Shown piece by piece: positions 11,186 to 18,537 of a DNA stretch of 64,000 nucleotides; position 1 is the stretch's first letter; each line of letters begins with the position of its first letter. The translations under genes were made by a program, and so were the position numbers. Source of the DNA: Escherichia coli. GTDB taxonomy: Bacteria; Pseudomonadota; Gammaproteobacteria; Enterobacterales; Enterobacteriaceae. The DNA is taken from the NCBI RefSeq assembly GCF_003334305.1, contig NZ_QOWS01000023.1; one strand, given 5' to 3'. The notes beneath the pieces were generated by a model, which searched no databases, was not told where the DNA came from, and was given only the letters and a program-made list of their open reading frames with translations.

Positions 11186-12055
11186 TCAAAACAAATCGTT
11201 TAGCATAACTCCCACACCGACACGGGTCTGGTTGAAGTTATAGTCGATGAGCGATTCGCCATAGCCGCTGTAAACCTGAGTATAAAGGCGCACATGTTTG
11301 GTGATCGGGTAACTTAAGCCTAACTCCGCGCCGCCGTAGCCGGTGTTCCAGTTGTACTGTCCTTTCGCACTGAGCACCGCATCACCGAGGTGATAGCCGA
11401 TTTTAAGCTGGTAGTAACCCATATATTTGGTGATATCCGGGTTATCGTCAGTATTACCCACCACATACCACGGCTTCACTTCTACCAGCCAGTTACCGTT
11501 TTCTGCCATCAGGCGAGTATAAAGGCGGTTCCAGCTGCGGGAGGTCGGGTCTGAACGCCCGTTAGAGTCGTGGTTATACCCCATCTCCACATCGCGCAGC
11601 GTCCAACCTGCAAAACGGTAATCGGTGGCAAAACCGAGGAACAATTGCGGTTCGTAGTTGGTTTCACGAAACGGTGAAGACTCTTCGCTATTGGACAGTT
11701 GCCACCAGGATTTTTGCGTATAAGATGCACCCAACACCGAGTTCGGGCCTAAAATCCCACGCCACAGTGGAAATGCCAGGCTCAACTGAAACTTTACTTC
11801 ATCCTTACGCGCATTTTCCGCCCAGTCGTAACTGGCAATCGCTTCTTTATTCAGATCGCTGGTTTGTGTGTAGATGAGGTAGTTGGTGTCATAAGGATAG
11901 AGCGTGAACGGATTGTCATGCTCCTGCAGCATATTGGCGATAATACTGCCACGCACCGCTGGCGCGTCATGCACCTCTTTCACCGTTGCCTCTTGTGCAT
12001 ATACTGCCATAGGCAACATAAACACCGGCAACAACCAGCCCTGCAGAGTCCGCAT
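11186..12055 (-). CDS. pldA: outer-membrane phospholipase A (289 aa)
   Basis: ORF MRTLQGWLLPVFMLPMAVYAQEATVKEVHDAPAVRGSIIANMLQEHDNPFTLYPYDTNYLIYT... recognised as OMPLA with signal peptide. Confidence 0.95.
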   Translation of the reverse strand: MRTLQGWLLPVFMLPMAVYAQEATVKEVHDAPAVRGSIIANMLQEHDNPFTLYPYDTNYLIYTQTSDLNKEAIASYDWAENARKDEVKFQLSLAFPLWRGILGPNSVLGASYTQKSWWQLSNSEESSPFRETNYEPQLFLGFATDYRFAGWTLRDVEMGYNHDSNGRSDPTSRSWNRLYTRLMAENGNWLVEVKPWYVVGNTDDNPDITKYMGYYQLKIGYHLGDAVLSAKGQYNWNTGYGGAELGLSYPITKHVRLYTQVYSGYGESLIDYNFNQTRVGVGVMLNDLF

Positions 12056-12219
12056 CGGTCGTGTTCTCCGTAACGAATTATTGATAAGGTGAATGTTTTT
12101 CTGCGGGCTATTTTACATACTTAACTCCATTGCCGTTAGTTATCCCTTCCTAAAGTAGAAACCAACAACAAAGAAGCATAAAATCAACATTTCATTAACC
12201 AATGAAGTGTAAGGATGAT

Positions 12220-12687
12220 ATGTCTGCCGTACTGACTGCTGAACAAGCCCTGAAATTAGTGGGTGAGATGTTTGTTTATCACATGCCATTTAACCGCGCA
12301 TTGGGGATGGAACTGGAGCGTTACGAAAAAGAGTTCGCACAGCTGGCCTTTAAAAATCAGCCAATGATGGTGGGCAACTGGGCGCAAAGCATTTTGCACG
12401 GCGGGGTCATTGCGTCGGCGCTGGATGTCGCCGCCGGTCTGGTGTGCGTGGGAAGTACCTTAACCCGCCACGAAACCATCAGTGAAGATGAACTACGCCA
12501 GCGGCTATCGCGGATGGGGACCATTGATCTTCGCGTTGATTATCTGCGCCCAGGCAGGGGCGAGCGTTTTACTGCTACCAGTAGCCTGTTGCGTGCAGGC
12601 AATAAAGTCGCCGTCGCCCGCGTTGAATTACACAATGAAGAACAGCTTTATATTGCCAGTGCCACCGCCACCTATATGGTAGGTTGA
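12220..12687 (+). CDS. yigI: hotdog-fold thioesterase YigI (155 aa)
   Basis: ORF track 12202-12687; ATG at 12220 ([37 protein letters not shown]...) gives the 155-aa length I recall. Confidence 0.8.
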
Positions 12688-12738
12688 AGACATAAAAGCA
12701 GGTAAACTGCTGTTACCAATTAAAAATGAGTATTCCCG

Positions 12739-13626
12739 ATGGATGCAAAACAAACGCGGCAGGGCGTATTACTCGCTCTTGCCGCTTATTTTATTTGGGG
12801 TATTGCGCCAGCGTACTTCAAGTTGATTTACTACGTGCCCGCCGATGAAATCCTGACGCATCGCGTGATCTGGTCGTTTTTCTTTATGGTGGTGCTGATG
12901 AGTATTTGCCGCCAGTGGTCCTATTTAAAAACGCTGATTCAGACGCCACAGAAAATTTTTATGCTGGCAGTCTCTGCCGTGCTGATTGGTGGCAACTGGC
13001 TACTGTTTATCTGGGCGGTGAACAATCACCATATGCTGGAAGCGAGCCTTGGTTACTTTATTAACCCGCTGGTGAACATTGTGCTGGGGATGATTTTCCT
13101 CGGCGAGCGATTCCGCCGGATGCAATGGCTGGCGGTGATTCTGGCGATATGTGGCGTGTTAGTCCAGCTGTGGACTTTTGGTTCGCTACCTATTATCGCG
13201 CTGGGACTGGCATTTAGTTTTGCCTTCTACGGTCTGGTACGCAAGAAGATTGCCGTTGAAGCGCAAACCGGCATGTTAATCGAAACCATGTGGCTGCTGC
13301 CCGTGGCGGCAATTTACCTGTTTGCTATTGCCGACAGCTCAACCAGCCATATGGGGCAAAACCCGATGTCGCTGAATTTACTGCTGATCGCCGCCGGTAT
13401 TGTCACTACCGTACCGCTGTTGTGTTTTACCGCCGCTGCCACGCGCTTGCGTCTCTCAACGTTAGGCTTTTTCCAGTACATTGGCCCGACGCTGATGTTC
13501 CTGCTGGCTGTGACGTTTTATGGTGAAAAACCGGGTGCCGATAAGATGGTGACTTTCGCCTTTATTTGGGTGGCGCTGGCAATTTTTGTTATGGATGCGA
13601 TTTATACGCAGCGTAGAAAAAGTTAA
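12739..13626 (+). CDS. rarD: EamA/DMT-family transporter RarD (295 aa)
   Basis: ORF MDAKQTRQGVLLALAAYFIWGIAPAYFKLIYYVPADEILTHRVIWSFFFMVV... polytopic membrane protein; synteny. Confidence 0.9.
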   Translation: MDAKQTRQGVLLALAAYFIWGIAPAYFKLIYYVPADEILTHRVIWSFFFMVVLMSICRQWSYLKTLIQTPQKIFMLAVSAVLIGGNWLLFIWAVNNHHMLEASLGYFINPLVNIVLGMIFLGERFRRMQWLAVILAICGVLVQLWTFGSLPIIALGLAFSFAFYGLVRKKIAVEAQTGMLIETMWLLPVAAIYLFAIADSSTSHMGQNPMSLNLLLIAAGIVTTVPLLCFTAAATRLRLSTLGFFQYIGPTLMFLLAVTFYGEKPGADKMVTFAFIWVALAIFVMDAIYTQRRKS

Positions 13627-13636
13627 GAATTAACAT

Positions 13637-13662
13637 GGGTAGGCCGTTTAATGAGCCTACCC
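13637..13662. terminator. stem-loop between convergent rarD and the 114-aa ORF
   Basis: gggtaggc ... gcctaccc inverted repeat followed by a T-run on the + strand. Confidence 0.45.
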
Positions 13663-13672
13663 ACTGACTTAT

Positions 13673-14017
13673 TTATCTTTTTTTGAAAAAAATTAAGATA
13701 AGAAAAAGAACAATATTTGTTACAGGAAGTACCCCCAAAACTCCCCAGTACTTACTCCATCCTAGAGACATCGTATATCTACCAAGGATTTGACAAAACC
13801 CAAAACTTAACCCTATACCTATACTTCTTAAATTTAATGTCGTAGTCAGGCTTAAAATAAATAGAACAAGGATGGTAATAGCCCACCACAATAACCATGC
13901 CTTAACAAAATCAGATTTTTTGCTGTAAGGTTCTTTACCCAAGAACAACTGCCAAAAGTTACCATTCCCCATATAGAATCCATTCCCCAAGATATTGTTT
14001 ATAGAATAAAAATACAT
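13673..14017 (-). CDS. hypothetical small hydrophobic protein (114 aa), AT-rich
   Basis: ORF MYFYSINNILGNGFYMGNGNFWQLFLGKEPYSKK... with two hydrophobic stretches; lies in low-GC DNA; no family recognised. Confidence 0.4.
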   Translation of the reverse strand: MYFYSINNILGNGFYMGNGNFWQLFLGKEPYSKKSDFVKAWLLWWAITILVLFILSLTTTLNLRSIGIGLSFGFCQILGRYTMSLGWSKYWGVLGVLPVTNIVLFLILIFFKKR

Positions 14018-14292
14018 TCCAATTATATAATTAAAATATACCCCATCAATAAAAACTTACACACTCTAAATTACTACTGTATAGTTATCAATGCAAAGAC
14101 TGCTATATTGCATATATATGCAAACCTCATAATTCAGGTAATATATATATTCAAAACAATTATATATAAAAAACAATGTAAAAAATATTCAAATCATCCA
14201 TCAGAAATATATTCTACCCATCCAGGCTTGAGCATTTATCACGCTTTCAGTTCATAATCTATACATTAACATCATGGTCAATATTAATAACT

Positions 14293-14571
14293 TTGAATGA
14301 TATCAACCTGGCTTTGAGTTTTATTCTGGTTATTAATAATACCTATGTAAATATCAATATTGGAGCAAAAAGAATAAGAGATACTGGATGTAAGGCAATC
14401 TACTTTGTATTGATTTCATTGGGTTTGACACTTTTTTCTATTATCTCTGCAGCAATTGAAGGGGTGAGATGTGAGTCATTAAGCGTCCAACTCAACGTGG
14501 CATGGATATTATTCACAACAATTATATTATCTGCGATTCCCTCGGCTAAAATGTCGCTGTCAGCACACTAA
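14293..14571 (+). CDS. hypothetical small hydrophobic protein (92 aa), AT-rich
   Basis: ORF MNDINLALSFILVINNTYVNINIGAKRIRDTGCKAIYFVLISLGLTLFSIISAAIEG...; divergent from the 114-aa ORF across a very AT-rich spacer. Confidence 0.35.
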   Translation: MNDINLALSFILVINNTYVNINIGAKRIRDTGCKAIYFVLISLGLTLFSIISAAIEGVRCESLSVQLNVAWILFTTIILSAIPSAKMSLSAH

Positions 14572-14588
14572 CTTACTCACAGCGACAT
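14551..14588. repeat. perfect 10-bp inverted repeat (atgtcgctgt ... acagcgacat) spanning the 92-aa ORF stop codon
   Basis: Read directly; lies immediately before the corA-like fragment. Confidence 0.5.
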
Positions 14589-14595
14589 CGTATAG

Positions 14596-14738
14596 TTACA
14601 GCCAGTTCTTACGCTTAAAGTACAGATACGGTGTCAGGCCCGCAAGGATCATAAAGATAATCGCGCCAGGGTAGCCAAAGCTCCACTTCAGTTCTGGCAT
14701 AAACTCAAAGTTCATGCCATAGCTGGAGGCAATCCGCG
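14596..14738 (-). pseudogene. diverged duplicate of the corA 3' end (last ~43 codons plus stop)
   Basis: Reverse-strand translation ...[43 protein letters not shown] matches the CorA C-terminus encoded at 16307-16449; ~143 nt alignable with several mismatches; upstream part of the 67-aa ORF is unrelated. Confidence 0.75.
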
Positions 14739-14922
14739 TAGGAAAAAGTTTCCTAATCGGTAAATTCAACATTTTGTTATTAACAATGAGCAAGACCAAT
14801 CATTAACGAGGTTCTCTTCAGAGATGTAATGAAAAAATGTGAAATGTACTTCTTTTTTAAATATTTTTTTACCCTAGCATTTGTTCTCGAATTGACATTG
14901 AGCTTAAATATAACCAAGGCAA

Positions 14923-15777
14923 ATGCAAATGAATAACATATTACTTCCGCCAATTAATATTCCCTGTACACTTTTCGAAACTATTAGTTTATTCGATGAT
15001 TTTTCTGCTGATGATATGCAATATGGTGATATGGTAGAACAAGACTTTCTCTCACTCGGCCTAAGCGATATCTCAGCAAAAGTTGATCCTTACAGACTTA
15101 TTAAATACCATTTCCCTGGCCCAGGTTCTATTAATGTTGCTTTTAGTGCCTCAAGTTCCGGAACAAAAATATCACAACGTGAATGCACTGATATTTTATT
15201 TGCAGAAATGAAAGAACTAGCAAAAATGTTTTCCTTTTTTGGACAAAATAAAACACTTATCGAAGATCTGATTGAACATTTTAGATATAGAAATGGCAGC
15301 AATTTTCATAGCCAACAATTAAATTTATCTTTTCATGAAAAAATAAATAAATATGGTTATAATAGTCCAATACGAATAATCAAAGAATGTATCGAAAATG
15401 GCATTAATTCAACTCCCTCGACAGGATACCAACCTCTTATCCTGCAAAGCATTAAAACCAAATTACTTTCATCAAGACTAAATAAATTTAATGACTTCGA
15501 GGACAGTTTTAATGGCTTAGGAATCAGTGTTCATGATATTTCAGCTCAAAAAATATCTCTTTTAAGTTTTCAAAACTACGCTATAGGATGGAGTGCAACA
15601 ATTCATTTTGTAGCACAGGACCACTTCGGTCTTGATGTAACTGATATCAAAAACAAGACTTACAGCAAATATAGATTTTTTCGCATATGGTTCTTTTTAC
15701 AACGGCATAAAGACTTTGCTTTCAAACCTTTTTTCACCAATTTTAACACTATCGAAAGAATCGAAAATTATCTATGA
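14923..15777 (+). CDS. hypothetical protein (284 aa; 282 aa if the second ATG at 14929 is used), no signal peptide
   Basis: Uninterrupted ORF in very AT-rich DNA; aagg Shine-Dalgarno-like motif ~10 nt before the ATG at 14929; stop overlaps the start of the next ORF (ATGA). Confidence 0.65.
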   Translation: MQMNNILLPPINIPCTLFETISLFDDFSADDMQYGDMVEQDFLSLGLSDISAKVDPYRLIKYHFPGPGSINVAFSASSSGTKISQRECTDILFAEMKELAKMFSFFGQNKTLIEDLIEHFRYRNGSNFHSQQLNLSFHEKINKYGYNSPIRIIKECIENGINSTPSTGYQPLILQSIKTKLLSSRLNKFNDFEDSFNGLGISVHDISAQKISLLSFQNYAIGWSATIHFVAQDHFGLDVTDIKNKTYSKYRFFRIWFFLQRHKDFAFKPFFTNFNTIERIENYL

Positions 15778-16253
15778 AAAGCAAACTCCAGAAAATTATA
15801 TTATGTTTATTTCTTCTATGCTGCATCTATAATTTATGGACATTGCGTCCTGTACAGATTTTGTATACATACTCTGATGCTGGCAATTCAGTCTTTCTGG
15901 TCGTTGATCATCTGCCATGGACTGACAGCGATAAAATAAATTGGTATCTGAAGCATCAGAATGAAATTAAAAATCAACATCCCCTACCAGAAGGTAGTTG
16001 GCATACCTGGTATGTCATTGATATCGGTAATGGCTTCACTGACTATAAAAAATATATCGAAGGGCCGTATGAAGATCTCTACTGTTTCCCGACAATTAAG
16101 AGCAATGATAATTGCATCGTGAAAAATTACTTAATGGTTATTAATGAATACCCTTATCGTAACACTCATATTGGTATTAACGATTTTACTGAGTATCAAT
16201 TAACACAAGAAAATAAAATAGAGCGAGTTTTCAATCCGCATGACTTTAAATAA
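15774..16253 (+). CDS. hypothetical protein (159 aa) with N-terminal hydrophobic anchor or signal segment
   Basis: ORF MKSKLQKIILCLFLLCCIYNLWTLRPVQ...; 4-bp ATGA overlap with the upstream ORF suggests translational coupling. Confidence 0.65.
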   Translation: MKSKLQKIILCLFLLCCIYNLWTLRPVQILYTYSDAGNSVFLVVDHLPWTDSDKINWYLKHQNEIKNQHPLPEGSWHTWYVIDIGNGFTDYKKYIEGPYEDLYCFPTIKSNDNCIVKNYLMVINEYPYRNTHIGINDFTEYQLTQENKIERVFNPHDFK

Positions 16254-16271
16254 GACAATTTTTAGAAATAA

Positions 16272-16300
16272 GCCGGATAAAAAAATAGCTTTATCCGGCA
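16272..16300. terminator. bidirectional stem-loop between the 159-aa ORF and corA
   Basis: gccggataaa ... tttatccggc inverted repeat with A/T runs. Confidence 0.5.
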
Positions 16301-16306
16301 CTCATA

Positions 16307-17257
16307 TTACAGCCAGTTCTTGCGCTTAAAGTACAGATACGGTGCCAGGCCCGCGAGGATCATAAAGATAATCGCGCCTGGGTAGCCGAAACTCCACTTC
16401 AGTTCTGGCATAAACTCAAAGTTCATCCCATAGCTGGAAGCAACGAGCGTCGGCGGCAGGAATACCACGGATACCACCGAGAAGATTTTGATGATGCGGT
16501 TCTGCTCGATGTTGATAAAGCCCATCGCCGCCTGCATCAGGAAGTTCACCTTCTGGAACAGGGATTCGTTATGCGGCAGCAGGGATTCGATATCTCGCAG
16601 GATTTCACGCGCCTGCTCCAGTTGCCCACCCGGTAAACGCGCCTTGCGTACCAGGAAGTTGAGCGCACGCTGGGTATCCATCAGACACAGGCGAACTTTC
16701 CAGCCGATATCTTCCAGTTCCGCCAGCGTGGAGAGCGCCTCATCGTACTCATCGCCCTGATGCCCTTCCATAATTACCCGGCTCAACTGCTCCAGATCGC
16801 TGTAGATATTTTCAATTTCATCTGCCAGCTGTTCGATTTTGGTTTCGAACAGATCCAACAGCAGCTCGTAGGCGTTACCGTCCACCATTGACTGGCTACG
16901 GGCGCGCATACGATACAGACGGAATGCAGGCAGTTCACGCTCACGCAGAGTAAACAGACGACCATCACGGATGGTAAATGCCACAGTGGAGTTACCGGCG
17001 TGATCTTCCGCATCTTCAAAGAAGAAGAAGGAGTGAATATGCAGGCCGTCGTCGTCTTCAAAGAAACGTGCCGATGCTTCGATGTCTTCCAGTTCCGGGC
17101 GGGTTGCCAGGCTCTGGCCAAGTTCAGATTGTACGCGCAGTCGCTCGTCGTCGTCCGGTTCGACAAGATCAATCCATACTGCATTTACAAGGGGTTGTGA
17201 CTCTTCGACTTCCAGCCGGGTCAGTCGGTTATTTTCCAGTTGAAATGCGCTCAGCAT
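16307..17257 (-). CDS. corA: Mg2+/Co2+ transport protein CorA (316 aa)
   Basis: ORF track 16307-17272; ATG at 17257 gives [31 protein letters not shown]... and the GMNFE signature near the C-terminus. Confidence 0.95.
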
Positions 17258-17626
17258 GACCGGGACTCCCAATGCTTAAAATATCGGACAGTTCGGTGGG
17301 CACACAGAAACAAATTGGGTTTCAGACCATTAAACAGCCTGACTCAGCGCGACGGGAAAAATTGAGGTCGCTGACAACCGCTAAGGCTATCAGCAAAAAG
17401 GGATAGCCTTAGGAGTTGATCCTGGATGACAGGATAGTGAGCCAGTATCTACTGGGTGTGTCCAAGGCGAATGTCCTCTTAGAGTGATCGTGCGCGCATG
17501 TTACGCCAGCAAAATTTTGCCGTCAACACGCAACAGAACACCACAGAACAATAGTTGAACTTCGCGCTTTTTGGTACTCGTCAAGGTCGCTAACAGGATA
17601 AAAAAATCCAACATCCAGGACCTATA

Positions 17627-18391
17627 ATGGCGCATCGGCTACTCATTGGTAAAGGAATGATCACCTTGAATCTCAAACGGATTTTTCTCACCCTCACCTT
17701 ACTTCCCTTGTTTGCTGTTGCCGCTGATGATTGCGCACTCTCAGATCCGACGCTGACCGTACAGGCGTATACCGTTAATCCTCAAACAGAGCGGGTGAAA
17801 ATGTACTGGCAAAAAGCCAATGGCGAAGCGTGGGGAACTTTACATGCTCTGCTGGCGGATATGAATAGTCAGGGTCAGGTGCAGATGGCGATGAACGGCG
17901 GCATCTATGATGAAAGCTATGCGCCGCTCGGTTTGTACATCGAAAACGGTCAGCAGAAGGTGGCGTTAAATCTCGCTTCAGGTGAAGGGAATTTCTTTAT
18001 CCGTCCTGGCGGCGTGTTTTATGTCGCGGGAGATAAAGTCGGCATCGTTCGTCTGGATGCCTTCAAAACCAGTAAAGAGATTCAGTTTGCGGTGCAGTCA
18101 GGGCCAATGTTGATGGAAAACAGTGTAATTAATCCGCGTATTCATCCCAACGTCGCCTCACGTAAAATTCGTAACGGTGTTGGGATTAATAAACATGGGA
18201 ATGCCGTGTTTTTGTTGAGCCAGCAGGCGACAAATTTTTATGATTTTGCCTGTTATGCCAAAGCGAAACTGAACGTTGAGCAGCTGCTTTATCTTGATGG
18301 CACGATTTCACATATGTATATGAAAGGCGGGGCAATCCCGTGGCAACGCTATCCTTTTGTCACCATGATTTCCGTAGAGCGGAAAGGTTAA
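17627..18391 (+). CDS. yigE: exported protein YigE (254 aa)
   Basis: 254-aa ORF with N-terminal signal-like segment; synteny between corA and uvrD. Confidence 0.8.
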   Translation: MAHRLLIGKGMITLNLKRIFLTLTLLPLFAVAADDCALSDPTLTVQAYTVNPQTERVKMYWQKANGEAWGTLHALLADMNSQGQVQMAMNGGIYDESYAPLGLYIENGQQKVALNLASGEGNFFIRPGGVFYVAGDKVGIVRLDAFKTSKEIQFAVQSGPMLMENSVINPRIHPNVASRKIRNGVGINKHGNAVFLLSQQATNFYDFACYAKAKLNVEQLLYLDGTISHMYMKGGAIPWQRYPFVTMISVERKG

Positions 18392-18430
18392 AACGATAGT
18401 TTTGTGTCAGATACTGAAGATGGCGCAGAT

Positions 18431-18460
18431 GCCGGATGCGGCGTAAACGCCCTATCCGGC
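18431..18460. repeat. REP element
   Basis: gccggatgcggcgtaaacgccctatccggc between convergent yigE and uvrD. Confidence 0.55.
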
Positions 18461-18537
18461 CTACATGACGTTGCAATTTATTGAATATGAATGATTTTTT
18501 AGGCCAAATAAGGTGCGCAGCACCGCATCCGGCAACG

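Follow-up and report, generated by a model that had tools for sequence, protein, structure and literature searches.

The window examined here, a stretch of 64 kb of Escherichia coli DNA taken as a whole, carries between rarD and corA two open reading frames that lie on the same strand, overlap by the sequence ATGA and are bordered by two copies of the 3' end of corA. The features of this region are as follows.

14596-14742, minus strand: corA', a pseudogene that duplicates the final ~47 codons of corA, forming the left copy of a direct repeat
14743-14922, plus strand: AT-rich upstream stretch, presumed to hold the promoter and 5' UTR of the effector gene
14923-15777, plus strand: DUF3289 (YPO3983-family) gene, 284 aa, or 282 aa from the RefSeq start at 14929
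15774-16253, plus strand: DUF943 gene, 159 aa, with a match to Pfam PF06092 and an N-terminal anchor
16272-16299, no strand assigned: GC-rich terminator-like hairpin in the gap where DUF943 and corA converge
16307-16453, minus strand: 3' end of the intact corA gene, forming the right-hand repeat copy

The rarD-corA locus and the corA repeat

The coordinates of both reading frames and their ATGA overlap, as given in a first-pass annotation of this DNA, were reproduced, although RefSeq places the start of the first gene two codons downstream of 14923. The AT-richness noted there was likewise borne out: positions 14739-16306 have a GC content of 32.2%, compared with 49.6% and 51.5% in the flanks, and 15301-15360 contains exactly 10 G/C. 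The AT-rich tract exceeds the module, as the entire rarD-corA spacer (13627-16306) has 33.1% GC. The upstream stretch at 14743-14922 is the most diverged part among alleles (79-86% identity), and consensus-like promoter sites within it are not enriched relative to shuffled sequence. The hairpin at 16272-16299, which has a stem of 11 pairs followed by a T-run, was predicted for the minus strand, on the side of corA, and probably also terminates the module transcript. No match was obtained in an Rfam scan of 12000-18500, and a Pfam search with the 114-aa and 92-aa ORFs to the left of corA' returned only a weak hint of DUF805.

The corA repeat is real. Its two copies (14596-14742 and 16307-16453) are 147 nt in length, share 92% identity in the same orientation, far beyond chance, and extend slightly further than the 14596-14738 and 16307-16449 originally proposed. 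RefSeq lists corA' as a "CorA family divalent cation transporter" that is incomplete, and the product of corA is WP_000947159.1 in every E. coli locus retrieved. The accompanying suggestion, that a cassette was acquired at the 3' end of corA, is not upheld. In ~900 E. coli genomes, as well as in Salmonella arizonae and diarizonae, the pair is found between rarD and corA without a corA duplicate. The repeats are not the trace of a module insertion: the same locus holds the pair without them in both E. coli and Salmonella. In E. coli and Salmonella loci where the module directly follows rarD, corA' is missing; homology to these repeat-free (C-type) loci begins at 14743, the edge of corA', and the corA' fragment can be assigned to the upstream yigG-yigF segment as readily as to the module. 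A comparison of corA' with the corA 3' ends of each locus type, made to trace where the copy came from, gave a noisy signal. Site-specific integration at the 3' end of corA was considered and rejected, since no integrase is present between rarD and corA and the module occupies the same site elsewhere without repeats.

The DUF3289 and DUF943 proteins and their characterised homologues

The first protein belongs to the DUF3289 family (PF11692; Pfam E-value 5.8e-82, model positions 2-270 of 272) and scores 428.7 bits against TIGR03034 (YPO3983), for which the curated cut-off is 156.45. The second is a DUF943 protein (PF06092; E-value 1.7e-26, model positions 1-150 of 151). These profile searches confirm an assignment that the first-pass annotation had suggested. 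The pair itself is real, but it is of the DUF3289/DUF943 kind already published rather than an undescribed system or a new class; the opinion that its function was unknown no longer stands, since the match is a confident one and the family has been characterised (PMC11148199, PMC12135965).

The DUF3289 domain alone spans residues 12-280 of the first protein, and Pfam recognised none of the delivery domains PAAR, PIX, MIX or WHIX. No hydrophobic segment exceeds the cut-off that we applied for membrane segments (Kyte-Doolittle 1.6, 19-residue mean). Residues H234, F235, G236, D241, W256, L259, Q260, P269 and F270 are invariant across 32 family sequences, and the reading frame in the window is intact with every family-invariant residue present (QDHFGLDxxD, W, LQ, PF). 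The second protein has a single N-terminal hydrophobic helix, in agreement with the anchor seen earlier, with a Kyte-Doolittle peak of 1.79 at residues 8-26; the AF2 model (pLDDT 93) places a helix at residues 2-24, and the transmembrane helix covers about residues 5-27. In DUF943, D101 is invariant and C104 and C114 are near-invariant. The modelled transmembrane anchor and the conserved Cys pair fit a domain located in the periplasm.

Among 29 longer DUF3289 proteins scanned, nine carry PAAR and one carries DUF4280, both of which are T6SS spike tips; in others the fusion partners are cell-wall domains, namely M23, M14, SH3_3, PG_binding_1, LysM and a glycoside hydrolase domain of the Rv2525c-like type. 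Fusions to PAAR and to cell-wall domains suggest that the toxin is exported and targets the envelope. We predict that the first protein is a T6SS cargo effector with the cell envelope as its target and the periplasm as its site of action, and that the second, anchored in the inner membrane with a domain in the periplasm, confers the cognate immunity. The earlier reading of the architecture as a toxin with a membrane-anchored immunity partner was correct.

Among the closest characterised systems is T6EC1/T6IC1 of Yersinia pseudotuberculosis IP32881, a PAAR-DUF3289 effector with a DUF943 immunity protein (PMC11148199). T6EC1 is toxic in the E. coli periplasm when supplied with a periplasm-targeting signal, causing cells to round up, and is neutralised by its DUF943 partner (PMC11148199). 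The same two Pfam families occur in the same order in the E. coli pair, and T6IC1 resembles the DUF943 protein of the window in having an N-terminal transmembrane helix with its bulk in the periplasm. In contrast, T6EC1 is fused to PAAR and is located inside a T6SS operon, whereas the E. coli protein is a bare DUF3289 domain and is encoded at the orphan rarD-corA locus. An orphan DUF3289 effector of Aeromonas jandaei (WP_042032936.1) is present in the T6SS-dependent secretome (PMC12135965; bioRxiv 10.64898/2026.01.27.701733), and deletion of the Aeromonas DUF3289 pair renders cells sensitive to T6SS attack, from which the immunity gene rescues them (PMC12135965). Like the E. coli gene, it is situated away from T6SS genes and is immediately followed by its immunity gene. 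[quoted passage not shown] DUF3289 is also among the C-terminal toxin domains of the PIX-domain orphan polymorphic T6SS effectors of the Enterobacterales (bioRxiv 10.1101/2023.07.16.549128). These share with the E. coli pair the orphan location, the Enterobacterales host and an immunity gene immediately downstream, but in the E. coli protein DUF3289 begins at residue 12, leaving no N-terminal extension to house PIX.

Structural information is provided by the crystal complex of the BtpeA (Bfe5) CTD with BtpiA from Bacteroides fragilis (PDB 9JDI, 9JG8 and 9JG9), which comprises a DUF3289 domain and an immunity protein. BtpeA differs in being 608 aa long and associated with the spike of a T6SS from the Bacteroidota. 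When all PDB sequences were searched with a profile built from 32 DUF3289 proteins, BtpeA entries alone were retrieved. A Foldseek search of the PDB with the AF2 model of the DUF943 protein gave nothing significant (best E-value 0.13) and hence no match to the BtpiA chain of 9JDI. Family membership and fold, together with the predicted topology of the immunity protein, all come from this analysis.

After BtpeA, the structural neighbours of the DUF3289 protein are pectocin M1, PaeM, ColM and syringacin M, all of them weak matches. Members of the colicin M family (ColM, PaeM, pectocins and syringacin M) are periplasm-acting cell-wall toxins, namely lipid II phosphoesterases that split lipid II into undecaprenol and 1-pyrophospho-MurNAc-pentapeptide-GlcNAc, and their homology to DUF3289 has been proposed in the literature. 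Mutagenesis studies of ColM define its catalytic signature as DxYDx5HR. Searched for as a regular expression, which tests for a collinear site only, this signature is absent from the protein in the window and from all 118 family members. Colicin-M-like cleavage of lipid II is one possible chemistry for DUF3289, at somewhat less than even odds. That the pair should operate as a colicin-M-like bacteriocin, one that leaves the producer without a T6SS, through lysis or some other exporter, and enters its target via an outer-membrane receptor, is very unlikely: these neighbours speak for it, but the resemblance is weak and the catalytic motif is missing, the single DUF3289 domain leaves out any receptor-binding or translocation region, no lysis gene adjoins the pair, and the locus is chromosomal rather than on a colicin plasmid.

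The first-pass annotation also raised abortive infection and toxin-antitoxin activity, in which the 284-aa protein would become toxic inside the cell that makes it upon loss of the 159-aa partner or upon phage infection. A translationally coupled, AT-rich, accessory two-gene architecture agrees with this, and nothing else does. Neither PADLOC (E-values up to 1) nor PHROG gave a match for either protein or for two neighbouring small ORFs. A tblastn search of plasmid and phage collections yielded next to nothing, and genuine plasmids and phages are essentially devoid of the family. The bulk of DUF943 is predicted to be periplasmic and the Yersinia homologue is toxic with a periplasm-targeting signal (PMC11148199). 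The architecture suggests a periplasmic target; the PAAR and cell-wall-domain fusions again indicate export. We consider an intracellular mode of action extremely unlikely. Several of the matches in the plasmid and phage collections are Mb-scale records or misfiled Salmonella contigs, not true plasmids or phages.

Gene organisation, distribution and association with the T6SS

Across 70 related loci of the Enterobacterales we counted 118 DUF3289 genes and 159 DUF943-like genes. A same-strand DUF943-like gene follows DUF3289 in 68 of these loci, usually with an overlap of 1-4 nt. The genes are arranged as EI, EII or EIII, or in arrays that reach 8 pairs, and in every case they share one strand and are tightly coupled. 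When the 1481 ORFs of the 70 loci were clustered, no cluster beyond the pair itself was present in more than 12 loci, and the top neighbour clusters consist of housekeeping genes. A BLASTP search with 18 T6SS proteins of strain A7 revealed no T6SS core homologues within 10 kb of any of the 70 stand-alone loci. No T6SS genes are present in the window, and the rarD-corA locus is therefore an orphan one.

The pair is present in 2649 of 5426 complete E. coli genomes, always on the chromosome; as anticipated, the module is accessory and not core. Laboratory B strains and O157:H7 are among the carriers, and K-12 is without the module. Strain A7 is 100% identical to the window across 13600-16500, and the T6SS that it encodes at aspV is complete, with tssA-M, vgrG, two hcp genes and an Rhs gene. 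The A7-type tssC is found in 2267 of the 5426 genomes; 3314 have either the module or this tssC, and 1602 have both. In raw counts that ignore kinship, A7-type tssC occurs in 60.5% of module carriers versus 23.9% of non-carriers, an odds ratio of ~4.9, and ~40% of E. coli carriers are without it. The BL21-derived strain T7Express has the pair intact, and its aspV T6SS cluster is gone.

It is possible that the locus is maintained mainly as a defensive immunity island against the DUF3289 toxins of competitors, with the effector a decaying or unused passenger, especially in strains lacking a T6SS. An effector pseudogene is located beside an intact immunity gene in E. coli MS21199 and in many Salmonella, orphan DUF943 genes are commonly in surplus (as in the counts above), and BL21 retains the pair without the aspV T6SS. 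Nevertheless, the effector ORF in the window is intact in all its invariant positions, dN/dS is ~0.2 in both genes, indicative of purifying selection, the T6SS of strain A7 is complete, and carriers are enriched for the A7-type T6SS. This alternative is improbable, if less so than the two considered above.

A silent, horizontally acquired remnant devoid of current function, for instance one silenced by H-NS, would be in keeping with a GC content of 32%, with the lack of promoter-site enrichment and with a presence/absence polymorphism in which losses from E. coli include IS-mediated and frameshift events. However, purifying selection acts on both genes, Salmonella and Atlantibacter have the pair conserved at this locus too, and the ORFs appear intact in most of the carriers sampled. 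There is accordingly very little probability that the module is such a remnant.

A proposed role in competition between strains

We favour, with a probability of about 0.8, the explanation that the two genes form an orphan T6SS effector-immunity pair. Weighing against it are the lack of T6SS genes nearby, the carriers devoid of A7-type tssC (T7Express retaining the pair without its aspV cluster), the lack of a recognised delivery domain, the missing ColM signature and the effector pseudogenes beside intact immunity genes. In this scheme the DUF3289 protein (282/284 aa) would be produced in the cytoplasm without a signal peptide, loaded as cargo on a T6SS encoded elsewhere in the genome and delivered by it to the periplasm of Gram-negative neighbours. 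There it would damage the cell wall or its precursors, leading to loss of rod shape and death. The coupled DUF943 protein would be held in the inner membrane of the producer by its one N-terminal helix, so that a disulfide-stabilised domain in the periplasm may bind and block effector arriving from sister cells. We infer that the E. coli pair is expressed and is delivered by an A7-type T6SS, by way of a putative loading partner and with a presumed chemistry of this kind.

The E. coli alleles are mosaic: the last ~75 effector codons and the immunity gene are 96-100% conserved, and the first ~205 effector codons are replaced between alleles by a version that is 10-20% diverged. Such mosaics may retarget one toxin-immunity core to different T6SS loading partners. 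DUF3289 could be a catalytically distinct envelope enzyme that relies on the invariant residues of H204-D205, QDHFGLDxxD and W-x2-LQR. The corA'/corA repeat may in turn be a substrate for RecA, whereby the module is excised to give the roughly 50:50 presence/absence polymorphism. We regard these three linked possibilities (a non-ColM enzyme, mosaic retargeting and RecA excision via the corA repeat) as rather unlikely.

RefSeq still names these proteins "YPO3983 family" and "DUF943 family", although the pair occurs in about half of the complete E. coli genomes. Reading it as an orphan T6SS effector-immunity pair supplies a testable role in competition between E. coli strains. BL21, in which toxicity assays are commonly run, has a related immunity gene of its own, and the module-free K-12 represents a clean background in which to work out the enzymatic activity of DUF3289.

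The rarD-corA locus and its two-gene pair

Within the gene order recQ-pldA-yigI-rarD ... corA-ysgD-yigE-uvrD, the 2.7-kb tract from the rarD stop (13626) to the corA stop (16307) has a GC content of 33%, compared with 51.5% for the window as a whole. The first-pass annotation had described two ORFs overlapping by ATGA in an AT-rich tract beside a duplicated corA 3' end, and this arrangement was confirmed in the sequence.

Features between rarD and corA
13673-14017 (-): small hydrophobic ORF, 114 aa (RefSeq 13673-13972, 99 aa, WP_000526434.1), in the left half of the AT-rich spacer
14293-14571 (+): 92-aa TTG-start ORF, diverged yigG-like remnant, not annotated by RefSeq
14596-14742 (-): corA', left copy of the corA 3'-end direct repeat (147 nt, 92% identity to the right copy)
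14923-15777: DUF3289 (effector) gene, 284 aa; RefSeq start at 14929
15774-16253: DUF943 (immunity) gene, 159 aa
16307-16453: corA 3' end, right copy of the repeat, in the same orientation

The hydrophobic ORF at 13673-14017 has no match in Pfam, NCBIfam, PADLOC or PHROG. The yigG-like ORF is 33% identical to the YigG of K-12 across 45 aa and 26% identical to that of Atlantibacter across 70 aa, and it has weak DUF805 and PRK11371 matches.

The larger protein of the pair consists of a single DUF3289 domain (Pfam PF11692, E 5.8e-82, residues 12-280) and scores 428.7 bits against the NCBIfam “YPO3983 family” (TIGR03034), and the smaller is a DUF943 protein (PF06092, E 1.7e-26); the resemblance proposed in the first-pass annotation was correct. 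The DUF943 protein has one transmembrane helix, at its N-terminus, and an invariant D101; C104 and C114 are near-invariant, which is consistent with a periplasmic disulfide. Its AlphaFold2 model (pLDDT 93) has no significant neighbour in the PDB. The effector was modelled in AlphaFold2 with 32 diverse homologues as input (pLDDT 89.3, pTM 0.85). Searches of both proteins against PADLOC and PHROGs returned nothing, and an intracellular toxin-antitoxin or abortive-infection module is most improbable.

DUF3289 proteins as type VI effectors

Published work and PDB entries on DUF3289 refute the suggestion that this system is undescribed. In Yersinia pseudotuberculosis, a T6SS operon encodes a PAAR-DUF3289 protein that is toxic to E. 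coli when targeted to the periplasm, the cells becoming round, and that is neutralised by the downstream DUF943 protein, which has a transmembrane segment at residues 7-26 and is otherwise periplasmic (Mol Syst Biol 2024, PMC11148199). The T6SS-dependent secretome of Aeromonas jandaei includes an orphan DUF3289 protein that forms a true effector-immunity pair with its downstream gene product in competition assays (PLoS Biol 2025, PMC12135965), as confirmed in a 2026 preprint (bioRxiv 10.64898/2026.01.27.701733). Other reports describe DUF3289 as a PAAR extension, as the toxin domain of PIX effectors (bioRxiv 10.1101/2023.07.16.549128), as an M23 peptidase fusion adjoining VgrG in Enterobacter, and as a partner of DUF943 in T6SS-linked clusters of Klebsiella. 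Three PDB entries (9JDI, 9JG8 and 9JG9) are titled “DUF3289 family protein”; 9JDI, released in September 2025, is the BtpeA CTD-BtpiA complex, a T6SS effector-immunity pair from B. fragilis. The rarD-corA pair is therefore a new member of an already described kind, with a predicted role at this locus.

That the DUF3289 protein attacks the cell envelope from the periplasmic side is well supported. The authors of PMC11148199 proposed homology to colicin M on the basis of Foldseek, but both that homology and a cleavage of lipid II are unproven, since the ColM signature DxYDx5HR was found neither in the window effector nor in 118 family members. Among 29 longer family members, PAAR occurs in nine and DUF4280 in one; other domains found on longer proteins are M23, M14, SH3_3, PG_binding_1, LysM and an Rv2525c-like glycoside hydrolase domain. 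These fusions independently link the family to T6SS spikes and peptidoglycan.

BL21 was the host in the published Yersinia toxicity assays and natively encodes a DUF943 protein, which evidently gave no protection; either protection is allele-specific or the gene is not expressed.

A one-genome-per-species scan yielded 70 Enterobacterales loci with 118 DUF3289 and 159 DUF943-like genes. The genes are always co-oriented and mostly overlap by 1-4 nt, in layouts of one effector gene with one (30 loci), two or three immunity genes and in arrays of up to eight pairs, an organisation characteristic of polymorphic toxin-immunity loci that include orphan immunity genes. Tandem arrays with extra orphan DUF943 genes are seen at L014 7156-10826, L089 7632-12682 and many Erwiniaceae loci (L027-L087), and several genomes, e.g. 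Kosakonia oryziphila and Rosenbergiella gaditana, have 4-7 separate loci. Beyond the pair, no neighbour cluster recurs in more than 12 of the 70 loci, the neighbours being housekeeping genes. No homologue of 18 T6SS proteins of strain A7 (an E. coli strain identical to the window over 13600-16500) lies within 10 kb of any of these loci, so the stand-alone pairs are consistently orphans. Orphan arrays, in which no T6SS core gene is found within 10 kb, can include PAAR-DUF3289 genes as well.

Strain A7 has a complete T6SS at aspV (tssB, C, E, F, G, tagH, J, K, L, H, vasI, A, M, VasL, two hcp, vgrG and Rhs). By inclusion-exclusion (module 2649, A7-type tssC 2267, either 3314), 1602 genomes carry both; tssC is present in 60.5% of module carriers vs 23.9% of the genomes without the module (odds ratio ~4.9). 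This co-occurrence is suggestive of a T6SS link but confounded by phylogeny. In the BL21 derivative T7Express the pair is intact (L002 3330-4666; L090) and the aspV cluster is replaced by an IS1/ISAs1 scar.

The best explanation, to which we give a probability of about 0.8, ahead of all four alternatives considered, is an orphan T6SS cargo effector with a membrane-anchored immunity protein; a bacteriocin acting without a T6SS is very unlikely. The effector would be delivered by the aspV T6SS through a presumed loading partner and, once injected, would act by a putative chemistry on the cell envelope within the recipient periplasm. The immunity protein would expose its anchored domain to the periplasm of the cell that makes it.

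Distribution and origin of the locus in E. coli

The module is present in 2649 of 5426 complete E. coli genomes, always chromosomal and at a single locus, and the alternative yigG-yigF genes are present in 2471.

Locus types in E. coli
Type A: small ORF, yigG-like remnant, corA', effector, immunity; window, strain A7, O157:H7; at least 1406 genomes
Type B: yigG, yigF, corA', effector, immunity; BL21 derivative
Type C: effector and immunity only, without corA'; alleles 88-92% identical
Type D: yigG and yigF only; K-12

In type A, found in at least 1406 genomes, yigG-yigF are replaced by the ORF at 13673-14017.

When the window is compared with type C alleles, protein identity is 84-86% for the effector (dS 0.31-0.44, dN/dS ~0.2) and 93-99% for the immunity protein, and dS in flanking corA is 0.12. 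A silent remnant is most doubtful. A 100-nt sliding comparison of the window with L003, L006 and L007 placed a recombination breakpoint within the effector gene. Identity between allele groups is 79-91% across the upstream region and first ~205 codons (14743-15542), and mostly 96-100% from ~15543-15643 onwards (the last ~75 effector codons and the immunity gene, to 16306). In strain CH4811 (L003) it drops to 81-87% over 16143-16342 (end of the DUF943 gene and pre-corA spacer), with 81% across the final ~100 nt of the immunity gene. The predicted catalytic C-terminal part is therefore co-inherited with the immunity gene, and the N-terminal ~205 residues differ; that this divergence reflects loading specificity is speculation.

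In E. coli MS21199 (L008 1927-2764) and in Salmonella enterica L010 (7150-8000) with 17 similar contigs, the effector gene is broken by a frameshift (in MS21199) or in-frame stop, with an intact DUF943 gene following it, as is usual where immunity is kept after the effector has been lost. A defensive locus maintained for its immunity function alone is unlikely as an account of the pair. In E. coli EM18-18-42 (L009 1788-2648), an IS1 insertion and an adjacent deletion have taken out yigF, corA' and the effector gene, together with all of DUF943 except its last 147 nt.

Insertion of a cassette at the corA 3' end, as originally proposed, is probably not the origin of the module. Type C is repeat-free, its homology to the window starting at 14743, the inner edge of corA'; no integrase is present between rarD and corA; and true plasmids and phages have essentially no members of the family. 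The type C layout recurs at the same locus in Salmonella enterica subspecies arizonae and diarizonae, and Atlantibacter subterranea has type B (yigG, yigF, corA', DUF3289, DUF943, corA), so that the pair is old at this site. The corA' of A. subterranea is longer (267 bp; L018 9277-9543) and 95.5% identical to that genome's own corA, so the duplication has either happened more than once or is ancient, its copies having been homogenised by gene conversion. The corA' fragment may just as well belong to the yigG-yigF segment, as its tail. One homologous and one illegitimate crossover between types C and D could have produced type B as a hybrid; in the other scenario, type B would have come first and a deletion between the repeats would have given type D, the K-12 locus being the BL21 locus minus exactly corA' to the immunity gene. 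A comparison of corA' with corA 3' ends favoured neither direction.

A second presence/absence polymorphism lies ~2 kb from the module, in the yigE-uvrD spacer: a 300-aa “SAM hydrolase/SAM-dependent halogenase family” gene is found there in BL21 (L002 6875-7777) and the type C strain CH4811 (L003 6713-7615), and is missing from the window (~18392-18537), strain A7 and K-12.
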